DNA of 64,000 bases, taken from NCBI GenBank assembly GCA_035480055.1, contig DATIIB010000009.1:277068-341067 (forward strand), read 5' to 3'. A program made the translations under genes and the position numbers. This document shows positions 4,380 to 47,981 of the stretch, in pieces (positions within the stretch are counted from its first letter, which is position 1; the number at the start of each line of letters is the position of its first letter). The notes below the pieces were generated by a model. It was given only the letters and a program-made list of their open reading frames with translations. It did not search any database and had not been told where the DNA came from. Origin of the DNA: Candidatus Saccharimonadales bacterium (lineage in GTDB: Bacteria > Patescibacteriota > Saccharimonadia > Saccharimonadales > DASZAF01).

Positions 4380-5132
4380 TTAAGAGCGGGGAGCTTTTTT
4401 GTTGCGTGATTTGGGCTTACGATGTGTAGATTTTTTGGCTGCTGGCGCAGGTGTGTCTTCTTCGGGAACTGGCTCGTCTTCGGGTTCAAGTTCTTCGGTA
4501 GAGCTTTCGTCTTGGTCTTCGAACTCAAGCGGTCCTTGAGCTGCGCTTGCTTTAGTAGTCTTTTTGAGTGGGCGAGTGCCGATCATCGCGCCAATGGTTG
4601 CGACAACGACCAAGGCTACAAAGGCCGCGAATGACATCCCCATCAGTTGCGTTTCGCGCTTTTCGATTTCAGTCAGCGAACGCGCGACCATAATGAAGCC
4701 AGATTGTTTCCCACCAAAGTGCTTCATGACCACTGCGACGCGAACGTCTTTTTGTGGCTGCCAGGTAAAGCGCTGTTCTTTGCCTTTTTTGGCTGCGGTG
4801 AAGGTGCCGTCTGGAGGAACAGGGGAATTGTTGTCGAGTGACATGGTGCTGGTTTGGACTTTTTTGTTTTCGTCGGTGACGATCAAAAAGAGACCAAGAC
4901 TTTTACGTGGATCAACCGTGCTGCCACCACCAAGTTGGTCAGGCGACGCGCCTTGCTCGAGAGCATTCGAGATGTCCTCGGCATATTGCACTTGTGGATC
5001 ATTGGCGTTTTGGCGATAGTTCTGCTGTATCGCAACAGAGCCGAAGCCAACCACAATGGCGCTGGCAACCACTGCGAGCAACCAGTATTTAAAACGAATA
5101 GAGCTGAGGGAAGGGGTGCGTAATTTCTTCAT
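4380..5132 (-). CDS. hypothetical bitopic membrane protein with extracytoplasmic domain and charged C-terminal tail
   Basis: ORF 4380..5168; probable start is MKKLRTPS. Two hydrophobic segments flank a ~150 aa domain. The tail is acidic then Lys/Arg-rich. Confidence 0.55.
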   Translation of the reverse strand: MKKLRTPSLSSIRFKYWLLAVVASAIVVGFGSVAIQQNYRQNANDPQVQYAEDISNALEQGASPDQLGGGSTVDPRKSLGLFLIVTDENKKVQTSTMSLDNNSPVPPDGTFTAAKKGKEQRFTWQPQKDVRVAVVMKHFGGKQSGFIMVARSLTEIEKRETQLMGMSFAAFVALVVVATIGAMIGTRPLKKTTKASAAQGPLEFEDQDESSTEELEPEDEPVPEEDTPAPAAKKSTHRKPKSRNKKAPRS

Positions 5133-5208
5133 AGGATCAAGTATACCTCTTTTACCAGTGAGCCCCAACTGTTTGTATTTTACCAGAGGTTATGCGACCA
5201 TACTAAGC

Positions 5209-8200
5209 ATGAATGCACAAGCCTTTGACGCAGCTTTTGCCCAGCTCAACGACGCGCAACGTGAAGCGGTTGAGACCATTGATGGTCCAGTGCTGGTAGT
5301 GGCCGGACCAGGTACCGGCAAGACGCAACTGCTCAGTATGCGGGTGGCAAATATTTTGCGCCGCTCAGACGCGAGTGCGCATAACATCTTGTGTATGACT
5401 TTTACCGAAGATGCTGCGCACAATATGCGGGAGCGGTTGGCCGGTATCATCGGTCCAGCAGCCTATGACGTCGAGATTCAAACCTTTCACAGCTTTGGCG
5501 CCTCGGTGATTGCCAGGTACGGTGAGTACTTTTACCAAGGCATTGGCAGTCAGCCAATTGACGAGCTGGCTGGACATGAAATTTTTGAGAAGATCTTTCA
5601 AAAGCTGCCGCAAGACAATCCGCTGAGTGCGCAGTTTGAAAATGACTTTTTGTATCTGAAAGGTGCGCAGAGTGCAGTAGATAATTTTAAAACCGCTGGG
5701 CTGGCACCCACGGAAGTGCGAGCGATTGCCAAAAGTAATCTCGACTTTGCCGGGCATGCCAATCGGGCGGTGGCCGAGGCAATGCAAGGCTTTACGCGAA
5801 TTGATAAGAGCTCGCCAGAACGTTTCAAAAAGCTGCTGAGTTTGCTGCAAGCTCTCACGAGCCCTGACGCTTCGACGCCCTTGTTTGTCAAACCGCTGGC
5901 AACCATTGTGGTGGATGCGCTGCACGCCGCGCTTGAGCTGGTGGAGGCGCATGGCAAAACGACTCCGCTGACTGAGTTTAAAAACGCTTTTTTGGTCAGA
6001 AGCGCGGCTGGCGAGTGGCAGCTGAAAGACAGCGAAGCAAGCAAAAAGTTACTGGCTCTGGCAGACATTTATGAGCAATACTTGTTGCAACTCCGCGAGT
6101 CAAATCTGATTGACTTCAATGACATGATCACTCGAGTTGTGCACGCCTTAGAGACCTTTGATGAGCTGCGGCTTAATCTTCAAGAGCAGTATCAATACAT
6201 TTTGGTTGATGAATTTCAGGACACCAGTTTAGCTCAGCTGCGATTGGTTACCGCGCTCACCGACAATCCGGTGTTTGAAGGTCGCCCAAACATCTTAGCA
6301 GTGGGGGATGATGACCAAGCGATTTATAGTTTTCAAGGTGCAGAACTTTCGAACATCCTCAGCTTTCATGCCCAATACCAAGACGTAAAAGTAATCACGC
6401 TGACCGAAAACTATCGGTCGCGCCAAGCGGTTTTACAGGCTGCCAAGTTTGTGATTGAACAGTCCAGCGAGCGCTTGGTGGCTCAATTGCAAGGCGTTAC
6501 CAAAGATATCGTTGCTCGCAACGAGACCCTGCCTGAACCCACGATCGCTCATCATCGGTTTGCCAGCGCCGAACAGCAGCGTCAATGGGTGGCAGACCAA
6601 ATTGCCAAGCTTATCGCCGACGGCACATCGCCCAGCGACATTGCAGTCATTACCGCCAAACATAACGGTCTGCGCATGGTCGTCCCTTTCTTGGCCGCTG
6701 CGGGCATTCCTGTCCGTTACGACAAACGCGAAAATATTTTGGAAGTTCCGGCAATCGTTGAGTTACTCACCATGGCCCGTTTGACGGTGGCGCTTGCAGA
6801 CAATACTCAGATGATCGCCAATGCATTATTTCCGCAAGTACTCAGCTATGCGTGTTGGGGTCTTTCCACCAAACAGATTTGGCAGCTATACCTGCATAAC
6901 TACCGCAAGCGATCACCGTGGCTGGAGACCGCGTTGCAAAGTGGCGATAGCGAAATAGCCCGCATTGCAGAATTTTTTATTGCCCTGGGTACGCGCGCCA
7001 AAACGTCGTCGCTCGAAACCATGATCGATTATTTGGTGGGGAATGAAGCCGTGGGGATGCAGGCAGGCGATGGCGAGCAACTATCGCTGGAGCCTTCAAC
7101 TTTCATTAGTCCATTTAAAGCGTTCTACTTTAGCGACGAAAACCGGCGCTTCCAGCCAAATGATTATCTGGAACTGCTCTCGCATCTCCGATTTCTGCGT
7201 GAGCGACTGCGGGAATTCCGGGCCACCGAGCAGCTGACCCTCCAGGACATTGTAAAGTATGTTGCACTCGTGGAAGGCGCCGGCATCCAATTGGTGGACA
7301 CCACGCCGCACCGCGAAAAAACCGATGCAGTGAGTTTATACACCGCGCATTCGTCCAAAGGACTTGAATTCGGCAGCGTGTTCATTGTGGATGCCAACCA
7401 CGACATTTGGAACAGCAGCGGCAGCCCGCTCGGGAAGATTAGCATGCCTACCAACTTGCCGATTGAGCGCTCGGCCGGCAGCGAAGAAGAACGCCGACGC
7501 TTGTTGTACGTGGCCATGACTCGCGCCAAACATCGGTTAGTTATTACCGGCTTTCAGGCCAACAAACGCGGCAATGCGCCGCTCAAATATCTCACCGGCA
7601 GCGAAGAAGAATTACCCGCTGGGTTGTTTCCCACAGAGCACGACGCAAGCGAGCAATCGCCTCAAGAAGTGACGGCCGCGCTGACCACCAGCTGGCATGA
7701 CCGCCATCTTACCGCCCGCCTGCAACCATCTATGAAAGAGTTATTGCTCCCCACGCTCGAGAACTATCGGCTGAGCGTCACTCACTTGCAGCGCTTTTTG
7801 AACGTCGCAGATGGCGGCCCAGCTCAGTGGTTCTTGCAATGCTTGCTGCATTTTCCACAGGCCAGCACGCCCAACATGGCTTTTGGAAACGCGGTGCATG
7901 CCACGCTCGAAGCAGCCCAAAAGTCTTTCAAAAAGACCGGGGAGCGCCGCTCGATCGACGATTTGCTCACAGATTTTGCAGTTTCCTTGCATCAGTGCCG
8001 CCTTGACCAAGAGGCGGAAGCGCGGCTGCTCAGCTTTGGCAACAAAATTTTGCGCCACTATTTTGCAGCTCGTTACGCCGATTTTCGGCAAGAAGAGTTC
8101 TTTGAGTTTGACGTGAGCAGCCGCCAAGTAATTATCAGTGGTGCTAGACTGACCGGCAAGATCGACCGCATTACGCCACTTGGCGACAATGACGTGCGGG

Positions 8201-28013: not shown

Positions 28014-28058
28014 CACCAATCTAAAACCAGGCCATGAAGACCTGGTTTTAGATTGGTG
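28014..28058. repeat. perfect 18 bp inverted repeat (hairpin) overlapping the 3' CCA end of tRNA-Leu; possible bidirectional terminator/processing hairpin
   Basis: CACCAATCTAAAACCAGG-ccatgaaga-CCTGGTTTTAGATTGGTG. The right arm includes TGGTG, the complement of the tRNA 3' end CACCA. Confidence 0.6.
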
Positions 28059-28140
28059 CCGGAGGAGGGACTTGAACCCTCACGAGCTAATGCTCACGGG
28101 ATTTTGAGTCCCGCGTGTCTGCCAATTCCACCACTCCGGC
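28054..28140 (-). tRNA. tRNA-Leu (anticodon CAA)
   Basis: Reverse complement: GCCGGAGTGGTGGAATTGGCAGACACGCGGGACTCAAAATCCCGTGAGCATTAGCTCGTGAGGGTTCAAGTCCCTCCTCCGGCACCA. Type II tRNA with a long variable arm and anticodon loop CTCAAAA. Confidence 0.9.
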
Positions 28141-28190
28141 ATGGCGTTTTATGACCCGTATTGTACACTATAAGAGACGATACTACCACC

Positions 28191-29444
28191 ATGAACAAGC
28201 GAGATTACTTTCTTCCCTCTCGGCCAACCCCCAAACGGCATCATCAGCCAGCGACGCATCAACAAGCCGCGGCTGATTATCTGCGCCAACAAGTAGCCCA
28301 AATTTATGGCGACGACGACACTCAGACGCCTGAGGTAAAGACAACGCTCGAGCAACCGGCGCAACATGCCTCGACCGCAGCGCCGCAAACCTATGCTCAC
28401 ACGTATCAGGCCGAAAGCAAGCCCTACGATTGGCAAACCTACCACACTGCCTGGCAAAATTATTACCGACAGTATTACGAACGTTATTATCTGCAGCAAG
28501 CCAGTCAACAGCGTCAAATCGCTGCTCCTGCTGAATCTGCTGCGCCACAGCCAGCTCAAACTGCCGAGGCCAAACCTCAACCCATCCAATCCAATCCTTA
28601 CGAAACGATCTCCCAAACCCTCGGTGGCAGCGTTACCCCAGAAGCAACTACGGGCAATCAAAAGGCGGTCCAAGCGCTCAAAACAAAATTGCTCGGCACA
28701 GTAGGGGAGCGAGCCAAAAAAGCCAAAGCCAGCCCGCATTTTATGCCACTCATTACCGCCATCGTGGTGGGCTTGCTCTTTTTGTTTCTGCAGTTCAACC
28801 GAACCTTGGTGGCTCAAGCCAAATATTTCATCAGCCCAGGCACGCTCACCAACGACAGTAGCTCGATTATTATCAACCCGAGCACCGTGGCGAGCGTAGG
28901 CCAAGACCCGCGGATCATCATTCCCAAAATCAATGTGGATGTGCCGGTAGTTTACGACGAGCCTTCGTACGACGATAAAAAAATCCAGAAAGCCTTGCAA
29001 CGCGGCGTTGTCCATTATGGCACCTCTGCCGTACCTGGGCAGTCGGGCAATGACGTGATTGTGGGCCACTCCAGCAATGACTTGTTCGACCCAGGCGGCT
29101 ATAAATTTGCGTTTGTACTGATTGATCACCTCAACAATGGCGATATCTTTATGCTCAACTACCAGGGGAAGCGGTACGTGTACAAGGTGTACAACAAAGC
29201 GGTTATCTCGCCGACCGATTTCTCGTTAATTAATATCAATCCCGATAAACCGGTCGTCACGTTGATCACCTGCACGCCTCCTGGCACTGCGCTGAAGCGT
29301 CTCGTCGTCCAGGCGGAGCAGATTAGCCCTGATCCCGATCAGAGCCAAGTCGCCAGCTCTACGCCGCCACAGGCTGCTTCGCTGCCGTCCACTATTCCGG
29401 GCAACTCACCAACACTTTTAGAGCGATTTAAGAAGTTGTTTTAA
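28191..29444 (+). CDS. sortase (class E-like) with long N-terminal low-complexity extension
   Basis: ORF 28161..29444; likely start is MNKRDYF. TM helix LITAIVVGLLFLFL. Catalytic motifs VIVGHSS and TLITCTPPG, and R in LKRLVV. Confidence 0.85.
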   Translation: MNKRDYFLPSRPTPKRHHQPATHQQAAADYLRQQVAQIYGDDDTQTPEVKTTLEQPAQHASTAAPQTYAHTYQAESKPYDWQTYHTAWQNYYRQYYERYYLQQASQQRQIAAPAESAAPQPAQTAEAKPQPIQSNPYETISQTLGGSVTPEATTGNQKAVQALKTKLLGTVGERAKKAKASPHFMPLITAIVVGLLFLFLQFNRTLVAQAKYFISPGTLTNDSSSIIINPSTVASVGQDPRIIIPKINVDVPVVYDEPSYDDKKIQKALQRGVVHYGTSAVPGQSGNDVIVGHSSNDLFDPGGYKFAFVLIDHLNNGDIFMLNYQGKRYVYKVYNKAVISPTDFSLININPDKPVVTLITCTPPGTALKRLVVQAEQISPDPDQSQVASSTPPQAASLPSTIPGNSPTLLERFKKLF

Positions 29445-29476
29445 CCTTACATCGTTAACTTATTGAGTGGTTACGA

Positions 29477-29856
29477 TCCTCCCTTCCTCCATCTCCACGG
29501 GTCCTGTCCCCATCCTCCCACACACTCCTCACCCTTCCGTTTCCCAAAAGCAACGTAACCGTTTACTTCGTAAGCCGACATTGCTTTTGGGAGCCCTCGG
29601 AAGAGTGATGGCTGTCCTCGTTGTTGGTAATAGCGATATGTCTGTTGTTTGGAAATGGATCCTTAATAATCTTATCGCTCTACCGAGCGGAGGACAGTCC
29701 GCAACCACCTCCCATTCCAAGAGACTGTGTGAACACTCCCAAAGGGAGTGGATCTCTGTCTCAGGAATGGGATGGTGGTGAGGAGCGACCTGGGAAGATA
29801 GGCGAATCAGGGGGAGGAACCCGTGGAGATGGAGGGATGGTGAGGAGCGTGGAGGA
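29477..29856 (+). ncRNA. candidate large structured RNA of unknown class (long closing stem plus three long hairpins)
   Basis: 428 nt gap between convergent genes. By-eye pairings:
- 29486-29502 with 29819-29835 (17 bp, perfect).
- 29477-29482 with 29851-29856.
- 29525-29533 with 29777-29785.
- 29542-29553 with 29581-29592 (12 bp).
- 29610-29619 with 29690-29699.
- 29632-29638 with 29673-29679.
- 29705-29718 with 29764-29778.
- 29734-29740 with 29744-29750.
Internal G-U pairs (29485/29836, 29562/29574, 29611/29698) are only compatible with the plus strand. Confidence 0.55.
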
Positions 29857-29872
29857 ATAAGGTAAACGGGAG

Positions 29873-31357
29873 CTACTTCTTTACGACCTTCAAACTCGTT
29901 GAAGTAAGGCTATACGGCCGCGTGGTGCTGCTGCCAGCCGGCGCTTTAAAGATCGTGTACAATGTATCGCTGTCTTCGCTAAGAAGGGGATCAAGGCTCG
30001 GATCGGCACGCACCAGTGCCTGCTGATTGGTGCCATCAAAATCCCACACCTGTAGCTGATCGCCAATAACGCCCGCAATATGGAATGCGTCCAGCCAGGT
30101 CACAGGGAATTTATCATTGAGCGAATTGACTGTGTAACCAAACTTTTGTTGCTCATAAAAATCGTATATCCCCAGCTGCGTGCCTTGCTGCAGGAGCAAG
30201 AAGCGACTATCACCATTAAACTTCACCACATTTGGAGCGATCCCCGAAAACTGGGCGAAAGGATGCTGGCGATTGGCGGCATTGTCGATATCCTGATAAA
30301 TAGTGGTCGTTTGCTTGGTACGATCCGCAATAACGTAGTAATTATGGCCATCAAATTCGCTGTAATTGACCGTGATATCCTCGGCCGCTGGAACCAGCTG
30401 CAAGATAGTATCTTTGTCTTTGATGCGCATGCCCACTTCTTGTTGCTGCGCTGCGCTACTATCAGTTGTAGCCTTCAGGCGATGAAAAATGATAGTGCTA
30501 TCACCAAATAGCTCAAACTGCTCCACACCTGTCATTAGCGCGCCAGAGACCGTATTGGCGCCTATATCAAAGCGACGCAACACATCTTTGGTCCTGGCAT
30601 AAATAATGTTGGTATTGCCACCGCTAAAATGCGCATCATCAATGGTTAGGTCGAATTTTTTGCTCAGGTTTATCGCTTCACTCGGCTTGCTGCGGTCGAC
30701 GTGCAAGTATTCGGTAACGTTGCCATTCACATGCTTGATCAAAAACTGTTTGGAATCGAGTGACCATTCCACGAATTGGAGCTGGCCAAGTTGCCCATTA
30801 ACCTGCGTCAATTCAGTATCTGGAATGGTAAGCGTGGTGCTTTGGGTTTTGGCAGGATCTTTGACATCCACCAGCTCCAGCTTGTCTTTGTCCTGACCAC
30901 CAGGATTAACCAGCAGCCAACGTTTATCAGGCGAGATACGGGCAAAGCTGACTGCCTCGTAATCTTTGACCACTTTGGTCTCGAGGTTGGTAGGAATCAA
31001 ACGTGGATAATTAATCCAATGGACATGACCGGCCACAATATCGATCTGCTTTTGCCATGAACGATAGCCATCTTGATCCATCTCAATGCTATAGCTGCCG
31101 GCTGGAAGCGTTTGTTTGTCTGGAGTTAGGCTTTTATACGTTTTGCCATTTATTTTATAGTGCGCGTCCACTGGATGAGCCGCCAGCTGCAGTAGCCCTT
31201 CGCGAATAACACCATGCTGCGTCCGGTCAAAACGATAGCCCATGGCAAGCATAATGACAAGGGTAGTAAGCCCGAGAGTCGCCATGGTCATAATGCCGTA
31301 GGTGAAAAAACGGATTGCTCTTTTAAAACGCTTGGATTGAAAGTCAATTTGCAACAT
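29873..31357 (-). CDS. PEGA domain-containing membrane protein with C-terminal beta-propeller-like region
   Basis: 494 aa. N-terminal TM helix, then a PEGA-like segment (AHYKINGKTYKSLTPDKQTLPAGSYSIEMDQDGYRSWQKQIDI), then a repetitive beta-rich region. Confidence 0.7.
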   Translation of the reverse strand: MLQIDFQSKRFKRAIRFFTYGIMTMATLGLTTLVIMLAMGYRFDRTQHGVIREGLLQLAAHPVDAHYKINGKTYKSLTPDKQTLPAGSYSIEMDQDGYRSWQKQIDIVAGHVHWINYPRLIPTNLETKVVKDYEAVSFARISPDKRWLLVNPGGQDKDKLELVDVKDPAKTQSTTLTIPDTELTQVNGQLGQLQFVEWSLDSKQFLIKHVNGNVTEYLHVDRSKPSEAINLSKKFDLTIDDAHFSGGNTNIIYARTKDVLRRFDIGANTVSGALMTGVEQFELFGDSTIIFHRLKATTDSSAAQQQEVGMRIKDKDTILQLVPAAEDITVNYSEFDGHNYYVIADRTKQTTTIYQDIDNAANRQHPFAQFSGIAPNVVKFNGDSRFLLLQQGTQLGIYDFYEQQKFGYTVNSLNDKFPVTWLDAFHIAGVIGDQLQVWDFDGTNQQALVRADPSLDPLLSEDSDTLYTIFKAPAGSSTTRPYSLTSTSLKVVKK

Positions 31358-39958: not shown

Positions 39959-40033
39959 GGCCCCATCGTCTAGTGGTTAGGACACCAGGTTCTCATCCTG
40001 GCAACCGGAGTTCGACTCTCCGTGGGGTCACCA
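39959..40033 (+). tRNA. tRNA-Glu (anticodon CUC)
   Basis: GGCCCCATCGTCTAGTGGTTAGGACACCAGGTTCTCATCCTGGCAACCGGAGTTCGACTCTCCGTGGGGTCACCA. Anticodon loop TTCTCAT. TGgTAATAT extended -10 lies 16 nt upstream. Confidence 0.9.
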
Positions 40034-45972: not shown

Positions 45973-46452
45973 ATGGGCAGGCTACCTATACCAGGACAGG
46001 ATTCAGGCACATGGGGAAATATTCTCAACGATTTTCTCAGCCAAACGTTGCAGACGGATGGCACACTTAAGGACGGCATTGTCTCGACGGTCAAGCTTGA
46101 TTCGACGGTTCAAGCGCAGCTGACAACGATCACCAACATCTCGCAGGTAACTGCAACAACTCAGGCAGGCACTACCTATACCTTGGCGCTGGCCGATGCG
46201 GCCACTGCCGTCGAACTCAGCTCCGCCAGTGCGGTCACCGTGACTGTGCCGCCAAATAGTTCGGTGGCTTTCCCGGTTGGAACGGTTATTGAATTACTGC
46301 AGTATGGGTCAGGCACGGTCACCATTGCCCCTGGTGCTGGCGTTACTATTCGGTCTGCAAACAACTTGCTCTCGGCTCGTACTCAATACTCAACGTTATC
46401 ACTGCGCAAGCGGGCAACGAACGAGTGGGTGCTGGCCGGGGACTTGGCATGA
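45973..46452 (+). CDS. hypothetical protein with phage tail-fibre-like N-terminal motif
   Basis: 159 aa. LPIPGQDSGTWGNILNDFL resembles the conserved N-terminal motif of actinophage tail-fibre/minor tail proteins. Thr/Ala/Val-rich beta region. Confidence 0.55.
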   Translation: MGRLPIPGQDSGTWGNILNDFLSQTLQTDGTLKDGIVSTVKLDSTVQAQLTTITNISQVTATTQAGTTYTLALADAATAVELSSASAVTVTVPPNSSVAFPVGTVIELLQYGSGTVTIAPGAGVTIRSANNLLSARTQYSTLSLRKRATNEWVLAGDLA

Positions 46453-47981
46453 TAGGCATCCATAGCAGCCGGCGAATGGCGATCTCTGAACCGGTGCTGC
46501 GGCCTTTGGCTGCTGGCGTTCGGGCTAGCCGTCGCCGCGTTGGTTATTTGGGTTCTGAAGCAGCTTTGACCGTCCTTACCAATGGCGACCCATTGCCGGG
46601 TGGCTGGTCAGCTGTCTGGGACACAGGCTCGCTGGTGGTGAACGGCAACAATGTAGTCATCGATCATTACCTGATTCACGGCTCAGTGGTTTTTCAGGGC
46701 AACAACCCAACCATGACCAATTGTCGAGTGTATTCCAACCCAGGCGATTTTTTTGGCGTAACCATCAATGGGGCAGGGCACGGGGTACTGACCATTTCGG
46801 ACACCAGTGTCATAGGCGATGCCAGCAGTGGCACCGCGCAGGTCAATGGCATTTCGTCGGATTCCGGTTTGATTGCTCGGCGCTGCGACGTGTCGGGAAC
46901 AGGGGATGGCATTCATTTGGTGTCGCAGGCCAGTCAGACCGACGCGATTATTTCGCAGTGTTATGTGCACGACCTCGCATTCGTGGATGAATCGCAACAC
47001 TGTGATGGCATACAGATATTTAATAATACCGGCACGGCAAGCTTCTTTACTGTCGAGCATTGCCGCGTTGAGCAAACACTTTCGACAATTGGCACACCGC
47101 TAAACTCTGCGATGACCTGCGGCACGCCGACCAACGATACAACTCCGCTTGCCACGCCGATCATCAATAATAATCATTTTGAATCTGGCTTGTATCACTT
47201 GCGGCTCAATTACCGTTTGCACAATGGGACCATCACTAATAACGACTTTGGTCCACAATACACCGGCGAATTTGGCATTGTGGATGTCGTTGTGCCAATG
47301 GCAACTTGGAGCAATAACCTCAACTCTGCAGGCGGAACCATTGGTAATCCGAACCCGCTCACCACGCCCGTGGTCAAAGAAGCCATCCAGACTCCCGATA
47401 GCGTCACCACTGCGCAAACGCTTTCTACCACTGCGGGTACAACCTTGGCCGGCGACACCTTGTTGATAATTTATTACAACGATAACAACACCGCACCGCA
47501 GGCCACCAGCACTGCGGGAACGTTAACGCAAATTGGCACCGACGCAGTAGATGGCAACGGCAGCGGCGTCCTTCGGGCATACACCGTGCCAGTGGCAACC
47601 AGCGGAAGTAAGAGCGTGACTTTCCCGGCCTCAAGCGGATTTGATGTCATGGGAGCTGTGCTGGTGTTAAGCGGGCAAATGGAAGTTGAAGGCTTTGTGA
47701 AGACGGCCATCGTCAGCTCAGACACCAACTTTACCATGCCGACCACAACCTTTGCCGGCAGCAAGAACTTGCTAGTAAATCTTGAGATTAGTCGTAGCAC
47801 ATTTGACCTCAGCGGCTCAGGGCTTACCACGCGCGCTGATCCAAAAGCGCCGCCATTCTCGGCGCTCAACGTCAGCAGCGCGGCAATGACCTCGTCGGGA
47901 ACAACGCCAACGTACCATTACACCACCAGCATTTCGGCCAAACCAGGCATGGTGGTGTTTGGATTACAATTCCTGCGATAA
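46449..47981 (+). CDS. right-handed parallel beta-helix repeat protein (pectate-lyase fold, depolymerase-like)
   Basis: ORF 46425..47981. The ATG at 46449 overlaps the upstream stop (ATGA). Repeating NNVVIDHYLIHG.. / NCRVYS.. / ISDTSVIGD.. / RCDVSGTGDGIH.. rungs. Confidence 0.65.
   Translation: MIGIHSSRRMAISEPVLRPLAAGVRASRRRVGYLGSEAALTVLTNGDPLPGGWSAVWDTGSLVVNGNNVVIDHYLIHGSVVFQGNNPTMTNCRVYSNPGDFFGVTINGAGHGVLTISDTSVIGDASSGTAQVNGISSDSGLIARRCDVSGTGDGIHLVSQASQTDAIISQCYVHDLAFVDESQHCDGIQIFNNTGTASFFTVEHCRVEQTLSTIGTPLNSAMTCGTPTNDTTPLATPIINNNHFESGLYHLRLNYRLHNGTITNNDFGPQYTGEFGIVDVVVPMATWSNNLNSAGGTIGNPNPLTTPVVKEAIQTPDSVTTAQTLSTTAGTTLAGDTLLIIYYNDNNTAPQATSTAGTLTQIGTDAVDGNGSGVLRAYTVPVATSGSKSVTFPASSGFDVMGAVLVLSGQMEVEGFVKTAIVSSDTNFTMPTTTFAGSKNLLVNLEISRSTFDLSGSGLTTRADPKAPPFSALNVSSAAMTSSGTTPTYHYTTSISAKPGMVVFGLQFLR

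Follow-up and report, generated by a model that had tools for sequence, protein, structure and literature searches.

The stretch of DNA considered here, hereafter the window, comprises 64,000 nucleotides from a Candidatus Saccharimonadales bacterium (contig DATIIB010000009.1 of assembly GCA_035480055.1, positions 277,068 to 341,067 of the forward strand). Within it, a sortase gene (28161-29444, plus strand; PF04203, E 1.8e-25) and a gene encoding a PEGA-domain protein (29873-31357, minus strand; PF08308) converge, and the 428 nt between their stop codons (29445-29872) are occupied by a single nested palindrome organised around a four-way junction. The sortase gene turns its 3' end towards this element, and the stop codon of the PEGA gene lies 3 nt past the last paired base of the palindrome (29869). 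The original prediction, made from the letters alone, had taken the gap for a candidate novel non-coding RNA (ncRNA) gene in single copy, transcribed from the plus strand. The analysis supports the view that the region is non-coding and extraordinarily structured, and leads, with moderate confidence, to another reading: the gap would hold one copy of a low-copy family of modular palindromic intergenic repeats, akin to miniature inverted-repeat transposable elements (MITEs), bacterial interspersed mosaic elements (BIMEs) or BOX elements, and specific to a Saccharimonadales lineage.

On the plus strand, the gap reaches a minimum free energy (MFE) of -210.2 kcal/mol, against -143.4 +/- 5.5 kcal/mol for dinucleotide shuffles (z -12.2), and 73% of its 428 nt are paired, so that the near-complete folding proposed by eye is borne out. 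Among 595 sliding windows of 428 nt taken over the 64 kb (mean -129 +/- 14 kcal/mol), the element is the extreme, at -207.5 kcal/mol, an outlier by 5.5 standard deviations; the other large gaps of the window are unstructured, with z near 0. The second most stable 428-nt stretch, at 46118-46652 (plus strand, -175.8 kcal/mol), lies inside open reading frames (ORFs), and its stability is explained by a G+C content of 0.58, its z being only -1.8.

The closing stem, P1, pairs a C/T-rich 5' arm (29452-29530) with a G/A-rich 3' arm (29780-29869) and encloses the four-way junction with hardly any linker residues. Its outermost pair, 29452/29869, marks the outward reach of the palindrome, which fills the whole gap. 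At the core of P1, positions 29484-29502 pair with 29819-29837 in a 19-bp helix that extends the 17-bp inverted repeat already noticed (29486-29502/29819-29835), which is indeed perfect. The junction carries three hairpins: hairpin 1 (29534-29603, 70 nt), with the helix 29541-29553/29581-29593 and an inner hairpin at 29561-29575; hairpin 2 (29605-29702, 98 nt), with the helices 29610-29619/29690-29699, 29624-29629/29681-29686 and 29632-29638/29673-29679; and hairpin 3 (29704-29779, 76 nt, 29 pairs), with the helices 29704-29718/29764-29779, 29721-29725/29758-29762 and 29734-29740/29744-29750. All three had been proposed by eye and are recovered in the MFE structure. A further helix drawn at 29525-29533/29777-29785 survives only as 29525-29530/29780-29785, the rest competing with the base of hairpin 3. 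Similarly, the pentamer CCTCC occurs three times in the 5' arm (29478, 29486 and 29514) and not four times as had been counted, while the 3' arm does carry GGAGG three times (29813, 29831 and 29851) and GAGGAG twice (29780 and 29842). These motifs need no explanation beyond the pairing of a polypyrimidine strand with a polypurine strand in the helices, and the idea of a Shine-Dalgarno/anti-Shine-Dalgarno mimic found neither support nor contrary evidence. The inner part of the 3' arm is also flanked by two direct repeats on the plus strand, ATGGGATGGTGGTGAGGAGCG at 29767-29787 and a sequence at 29829-29849 that is 81% identical to it.

The minus strand folds nearly as well as the plus strand (MFE -206.8 kcal/mol, z -9.8) and has a similar number of G-U pairs, 10 against 12. 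Therefore, the fold carries no strand signal, and the plus-strand transcript that had been deduced from G-U pairs has to be given up; such near-equal folding of both strands is as expected of a DNA palindrome. Neither a sigma-70-like promoter nor an intrinsic terminator was detected near the element, with the limit that the consensus may not fit this phylum. The statement that no known RNA family is involved stands: the element has no Rfam match even at E up to 10, and its second copy, described below, has none up to E 5. Permissive matches in both copies are to spurious long non-coding RNA and microRNA models, far below thresholds and never at gathering score, and the only Rfam matches in the window are three tRNAs. 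RNase P, suggested by the string GGAGGACAGUCC, was rejected as no covariance-model match was obtained; this string is the 3' strand of hairpin 2.

The sequence of the element is identical in two further assemblies, GCA_964479845.1 and one Logan contig, and therefore it is real rather than an assembly artefact. GCA_964479845.1 is 100% identical to the window over all overlaps of the fetched loci (20.2, 12.4 and 12.2 kb). The Logan contig (L021, from SRR9179560) ends at position 29732 of the window, within the loop of hairpin 3, that is, one 31-mer before 29762, where the two copies of the element first differ. As the Logan assembly graph uses a k-mer size of 31, this is where the contig would be expected to end if the core shared by the copies breaks such a graph, and the position thus fits a break caused by a repeat.

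The second copy was found through a protein search. A 113-codon open frame on the minus strand of the element, compared with 1.84 billion representative proteins, matched P0043 with an E of 3.9e-5 and 59% identity over 41 residues. P0043 had been called as an ORF of 203 aa on contig 1 of GCA_964479845.1, where it lies between dnaA and dnaN. P0041, P0042 and P0044, obtained by the same search, are low-complexity repeat proteins and were discarded as spurious. P0043 is itself a spurious ORF over the dnaA-dnaN spacer. Copy 2 lies on the minus strand at 5009-5356 of the fetched locus L091, and its first base directly follows the dnaA stop codon. A protein-coding function of the element is, for its part, barely credible. 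Two plus-strand ORFs do exist in copy 1, one of 104 aa starting with GTG (29467-29781) and one of 79 aa (29621-29860), and the gene caller gave a partial ORF at a contig end as well as the 203-aa ORF over copy 2. However, the ORFs on the element contain no Pfam domain and neither of the two plus-strand ORFs has a homologue among 5.8 billion proteins. Furthermore, P0043, the sole related 'protein', corresponds to a frame on the opposite strand and runs through the DnaA boxes of oriC, and what the copies share is the palindrome, which points to a pairing constraint rather than to a reading-frame constraint.

As an approximate repeat element, copy 1 extends from 29465, where similarity to copy 2 starts, to 29861, the outer end of the inverted repeat given by the helices 29459-29464/29856-29861. 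The two copies align in two blocks. The main one (29664-29787, L091 5150-5027) comprises 125 aligned positions with 79% identity (E 9e-26); the other, of 47 nt with 81% identity, lies in the 5' arm (29479-29519, L091 5337-5291) and includes a run of 15 nt, TCTCCACGGGTCCTG (29492-29506), that is the same in both copies. Within the main block, a 42-nt core, AGAGACTGTGTGAACACTCCCAAAGGGAGTGGATCTCTGTCT (29720-29761), is invariant and the remainder differs at about 30% of positions; this core makes up the apex of hairpin 3, including an asymmetric internal loop. Hairpin 3 is the conserved hairpin of the family: among its 29 pairs, three show compensatory double changes, all in the lower stem, a single G-C pair has become G-U, and no pair is disrupted. 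The proposed structure is thus kept between the copies in this part, and this covariation is seen only between two paralogous copies and only in hairpin 3.

Copy 2, which as a whole folds with a z of -7, is otherwise arranged differently. Hairpin 2 is degenerate (z -1.3), only its 3' strand being kept, and the place of hairpin 1 is taken by hairpin 1', which differs from it in sequence but resembles it in its CCC(T)AAAA/TTTT(A)GGG base. The strand that pairs with the 5' arm directly follows hairpin 1', so that the closing stem is a short stem enclosing only this hairpin. The hairpin 2/3 module, nested within the closing stem in copy 1, follows in tandem after the closed unit formed by the arm and hairpin 1' in copy 2. 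Therefore, the two copies appear as different assemblies of the same palindromic modules. In copy 1, the inverted arms 29481-29511/29810-29840 (31 nt) are 81% complementary and pairing extends from them to 29452/29869.

The main rival reading, judged unlikely although still a serious contender, is a family of structured RNAs restricted to this lineage and represented by two or more paralogous loci, which would be independent ncRNA genes or cis-acting elements in the 3' untranslated regions (3'-UTRs) of the abutting genes. Hairpin 3, with its invariant apex and internal loop, would then bind a protein and form the functional module; copy 1 would be intact, and copy 2 would have decayed or be a variant. 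Such a family would agree with the extreme stability of a multi-branched fold (z -12, and -7 for copy 2), with the three compensatory double changes, single wobble and absence of broken pairs around an invariant apex, and with the lack of any match to a known family. The low copy number, unlike that of classical repetitive extragenic palindromic (REP) or MITE families, and the same orientation of both copies relative to the gene entering on the hairpin-3 side (the PEGA gene and dnaA) point in the same direction. However, the element is absent from the syntenic site of every relative and from all the related DNA searched, its architecture is unlike between copies, with a degenerate hairpin 2 and a rearranged closing stem, and copy 1 shows neither promoter nor terminator nor G-U strand preference. 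Moreover, compensatory change is also found in DNA palindromes and in hairpins recognised by transposases. A more specific version appears more doubtful still: an undescribed large-RNA family of Saccharimonadales, whose 42-nt apex would be a protein-recognition module and whose four-way-junction copy 1 would be functional, for example as 3'-UTR or antisense RNA acting on the abutting genes, including dnaA.

The location of copy 2 raises another possibility, namely that the element works as DNA, forming a cruciform or a single-strand hairpin that serves replication or recombination. Copy 2 adjoins oriC, the rest of the dnaA-dnaN spacer containing DnaA boxes and an AT-rich stretch (L091 5414-5610). 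The locus L091 contains 12 DnaA boxes for 1.9 expected; box-like sites are five in the rnpA-dnaA gap and three, together with the AT-rich stretch, in the dnaA-dnaN gap. The source genome therefore appears to have a bipartite oriC flanking dnaA (L091 3396-3589 and 5414-5610). Copy 2 thus lies between the dnaA stop codon and one cluster of boxes, the second cluster being upstream of dnaA, and the equivalent hairpins formed by both strands would suit a DNA-level function. However, neither copy contains a DnaA box, and the dnaA-dnaN spacer is also simply a tolerant non-coding site. A link of copy 1 with a replication origin or terminus or with DnaA boxes was rejected, as neither box enrichment nor a GC-skew switch is found there. 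Globally, a DNA-level role is considered very improbable.

The history of the sortase/PEGA site was approached through its relatives. About 60 contigs supplied the syntenic locus, and about 30 distinct related Saccharimonadales sequences among them had a readable gap; the closest homologues of the PEGA protein have only 67-68% protein identity. The convergent PEGA/sortase pair is kept across Saccharimonadales but the gap between the two genes is not. In none of the approximately 30 loci does the gap contain the element, and it mostly measures 0-38 nt (34 nt in L003, one of the nearest relatives). Furthermore, blastn, nhmmer and a covariance model of hairpin 3 did not find the element in 0.5-0.9 Mb of related DNA. 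The gap is hypervariable across the order, ranging from 0 to 1625 nt and harbouring unrelated cargo genes (L001 2225-3817, L022 11527-12228, L024 11505-11861, L047 7476-8117 and L005 5591-6337). This cargo includes a 530-aa orphan, a 233-aa orphan, a 118-aa protein, a pentapeptide-repeat protein and a methyltransferase, and none of these genes matches PADLOC defence models. The element is therefore peculiar to its lineage and occupies a site that varies strongly across the order.

Two apparent counterparts in relatives were discarded: the 435-nt gap of L024, which is of similar size, contains a genuine gene of 118 aa and lacks structure (z -1.9), and the G-rich gap tails of L056 and L061, which resemble the element by eye, have no significant similarity to it according to nhmmer. 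The gap of L056 (1747-2236, 490 nt, z -3.9) contains tandem GGTACC(G/C)AG repeats and a G/A-rich tail beside the PEGA stop codon. In a distant relative, L054, the gap carries an unrelated 132-nt element (5662-5793; -68.4 kcal/mol, z -9.5) with a perfect 24-bp closing stem around two small hairpins, and L048 likewise has an unrelated long hairpin in this gap (z -4.1). Long hairpins between PEGA and sortase genes may thus be recurrent in the order.

These unrelated hairpins could be taken to favour a giant bidirectional terminator, or a stabiliser of 3' ends, evolved in place between the convergent genes, and so could the presence of another 18-bp perfect hairpin in the source genome (window 28014-28058). 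The palindrome spans the interval from stop codon to stop codon, and the first ~120 nt past the stop codon are C-rich and G-poor on either strand; on each strand, such a leading arm might load Rho. However, the existence of a homologous copy between dnaA and dnaN contradicts evolution in place. Neither strand has a U-tract after the hairpin, and a scan for terminators was negative within the element. In addition, gaps of 0-38 nt suffice in most relatives, and about 400 nt with three inner hairpins far exceed what termination needs. This reading is judged quite improbable, though less so than the DNA-level role.

The reading as a palindromic repeat family is preferred because the element is absent from relatives, exists in a second, rearranged copy, folds equally on both strands, lacks transcription signals and sits against stop codons. 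Both copies are extragenic and placed at gene 3' ends, copy 1 between two stop codons and copy 2 after that of dnaA; a position adjacent to a stop codon is a typical safe site for palindromic repeats. With about 400 non-coding nt, the element is within the size range of short elements such as MITEs (less than about 600 bp). As for the single-copy ncRNA gene, the region is non-coding and structured, has no Rfam counterpart and keeps hairpin 3 between copies, but it is neither conserved nor unique. Among the findings named beforehand as speaking against an RNA gene, lack of conservation in relatives and dispersed copies are at least partly observed, but target-site duplications are not.

Several observations weigh against the repeat family. 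No target-site duplication was found at either copy, the boundaries being uncertain by about 10 nt; TTACGA, present at 29471 and 29881, is a chance-level match and does not abut the ends of the element. Terminal inverted repeats are lacking in copy 2 taken as a unit, where an inverted repeat closes only the sub-module formed by the arm and hairpin 1'. Neither a transposase nor an integrase is present among the Pfam matches of the gene calls and of the larger ORFs checked over 92 kb. Only two copies are known: the ~92 kb of source genome examined, about one tenth of the 952 kb in the three contigs seen and including a further 27 kb, yielded no third one. The two copies sit on different contigs, and a genome walk from the ends of the window added about 17 kb devoid of additional copies. 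Within the remainder of the 64-kb window, a mismatch-tolerant pattern search and short-word blastn found no further copy. Searches of public collections were likewise negative: a degenerate 20-mer from the closing stem gave 14 single unrelated matches, none in Saccharimonadales, among GTDB representative genomes; a 22-mer from the hairpin 2/3 junction had no match in JGI metagenomes; of three patterns compared with IMG/VR, one gave only chance matches and two gave none; and blastn against phage and plasmid collections returned nothing. The exact-pattern scans among these used less conserved segments and not the 42-nt core. Finally, an invariant 42-nt apex on a stem that shows compensatory changes is also what would be expected of a functional RNA.

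Among characterised systems, the BIMEs and REP clusters of Enterobacteria and Pseudomonas, mobilised by REP-associated tyrosine transposases (RAYTs), resemble the element in that they are extragenic, assemble palindromic modules in varying order, also occur at gene 3' ends or between convergent genes, and have hairpins kept by compensatory change, as here. However, REP units measure 20-40 nt and are present in hundreds of copies, whereas the modules of the element measure 70-100 nt and two copies are known. There is no sequence similarity between them, and neither a guide tetranucleotide of the GTAG type nor a RAYT gene was identified in the source-genome DNA seen. The features shared with MITEs (Correia elements of Neisseria, the enterobacterial repetitive intergenic consensus (ERIC) or intergenic repeat unit (IRU), Nezha, Rickettsia palindromic elements) are small size, no coding capacity, long imperfect terminal inverted repeats in copy 1 (81% complementary over 31 nt, with further pairing beyond), folding of either strand into a long hairpin, dispersal in one genome and absence from the orthologous sites of relatives. 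Unlike MITEs, the element has no target-site duplication, a very low copy number and, in copy 2 taken as a unit, no terminal inverted repeats; moreover, the DNA seen contains neither a parent insertion sequence (IS) nor a transposase. A simple MITE would not usually have three inner hairpins, which suggest nesting. BOX elements of Streptococcus pneumoniae (boxA-boxB-boxC) are likewise intergenic, modular, variable in arrangement and stably structured, but they exceed 100 copies per genome and have defined A, B and C modules; the element is unrelated in sequence and the Rfam scans were empty. Lastly, large ncRNAs of Rfam (RNase P, tmRNA, 6S, SRP, OLE, GOLLD, ROOL, HEARO/omega RNA, raiA) share its size range and multi-helix junction, whereas the element matches none of them, is not conserved, folds equally on its reverse strand and does not keep the junction architecture in copy 2.

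Under the repeat-family reading, the element would have arrived in the hypervariable sortase/PEGA gap, and a second, rearranged copy would have come to lie flush against the dnaA stop codon. The hairpin modules may have been spread or rearranged through transposition in trans; recombination between palindromes, or template switching from one to another, is a second conceivable route. The invariant apex of hairpin 3 could serve as the recognition site of a mobilising protein or, alternatively, stem from recent gene conversion. As the two copies adjoin 3' ends of genes, transcription running past the end of either flanking gene would be expected to yield RNA that folds into a very stable hairpin. 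REP and BIME sequences are known to stabilise upstream mRNA and to attenuate read-through; by analogy with these and other palindromic repeats, the element might plausibly obstruct convergent read-through as well as 3' exonucleases. This effect, if it exists, would have arisen as a by-product or by exaptation and would not explain why the sequence is there.

Two other features of the window were noted in passing. The 18-bp inverted repeat at 28014-28058, with its 9-nt loop, touches a tRNA gene (28057-28140, minus strand) and is probably a terminator; the 209-nt gap that holds it folds with a z of about -6. Besides, contig CAYZNG010000002.1 of the other assembly of this genome, GCA_964479845.1, ends at position 40033 of the window, 3 nt past the tRNA at 39959-40030, where the assembly of the window continues; there may be a repeat or a variable region at this point.

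Saccharibacteria and other bacteria of the candidate phyla radiation (CPR) have very small and compact genomes, and no literature report of palindromic repeats or MITEs in Saccharibacteria was found. If the reading as a palindromic repeat family is right, selfish or structural repeats would persist even in such streamlined genomes, where they are unexpected; the location of one copy between dnaA and oriC is notable, and the sortase/PEGA gap would be an insertion hot spot. In practice, gene callers make spurious proteins such as P0043 from such repeats, and assemblers break contigs there. The element also warns against taking an extreme predicted RNA structure for evidence of an RNA gene, because a DNA palindrome gives the same folding signal on both strands. 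If hairpin 3 is a module recognised as RNA or by a protein, it would offer a route to a hitherto unknown mobilisation or regulatory system in this phylum.

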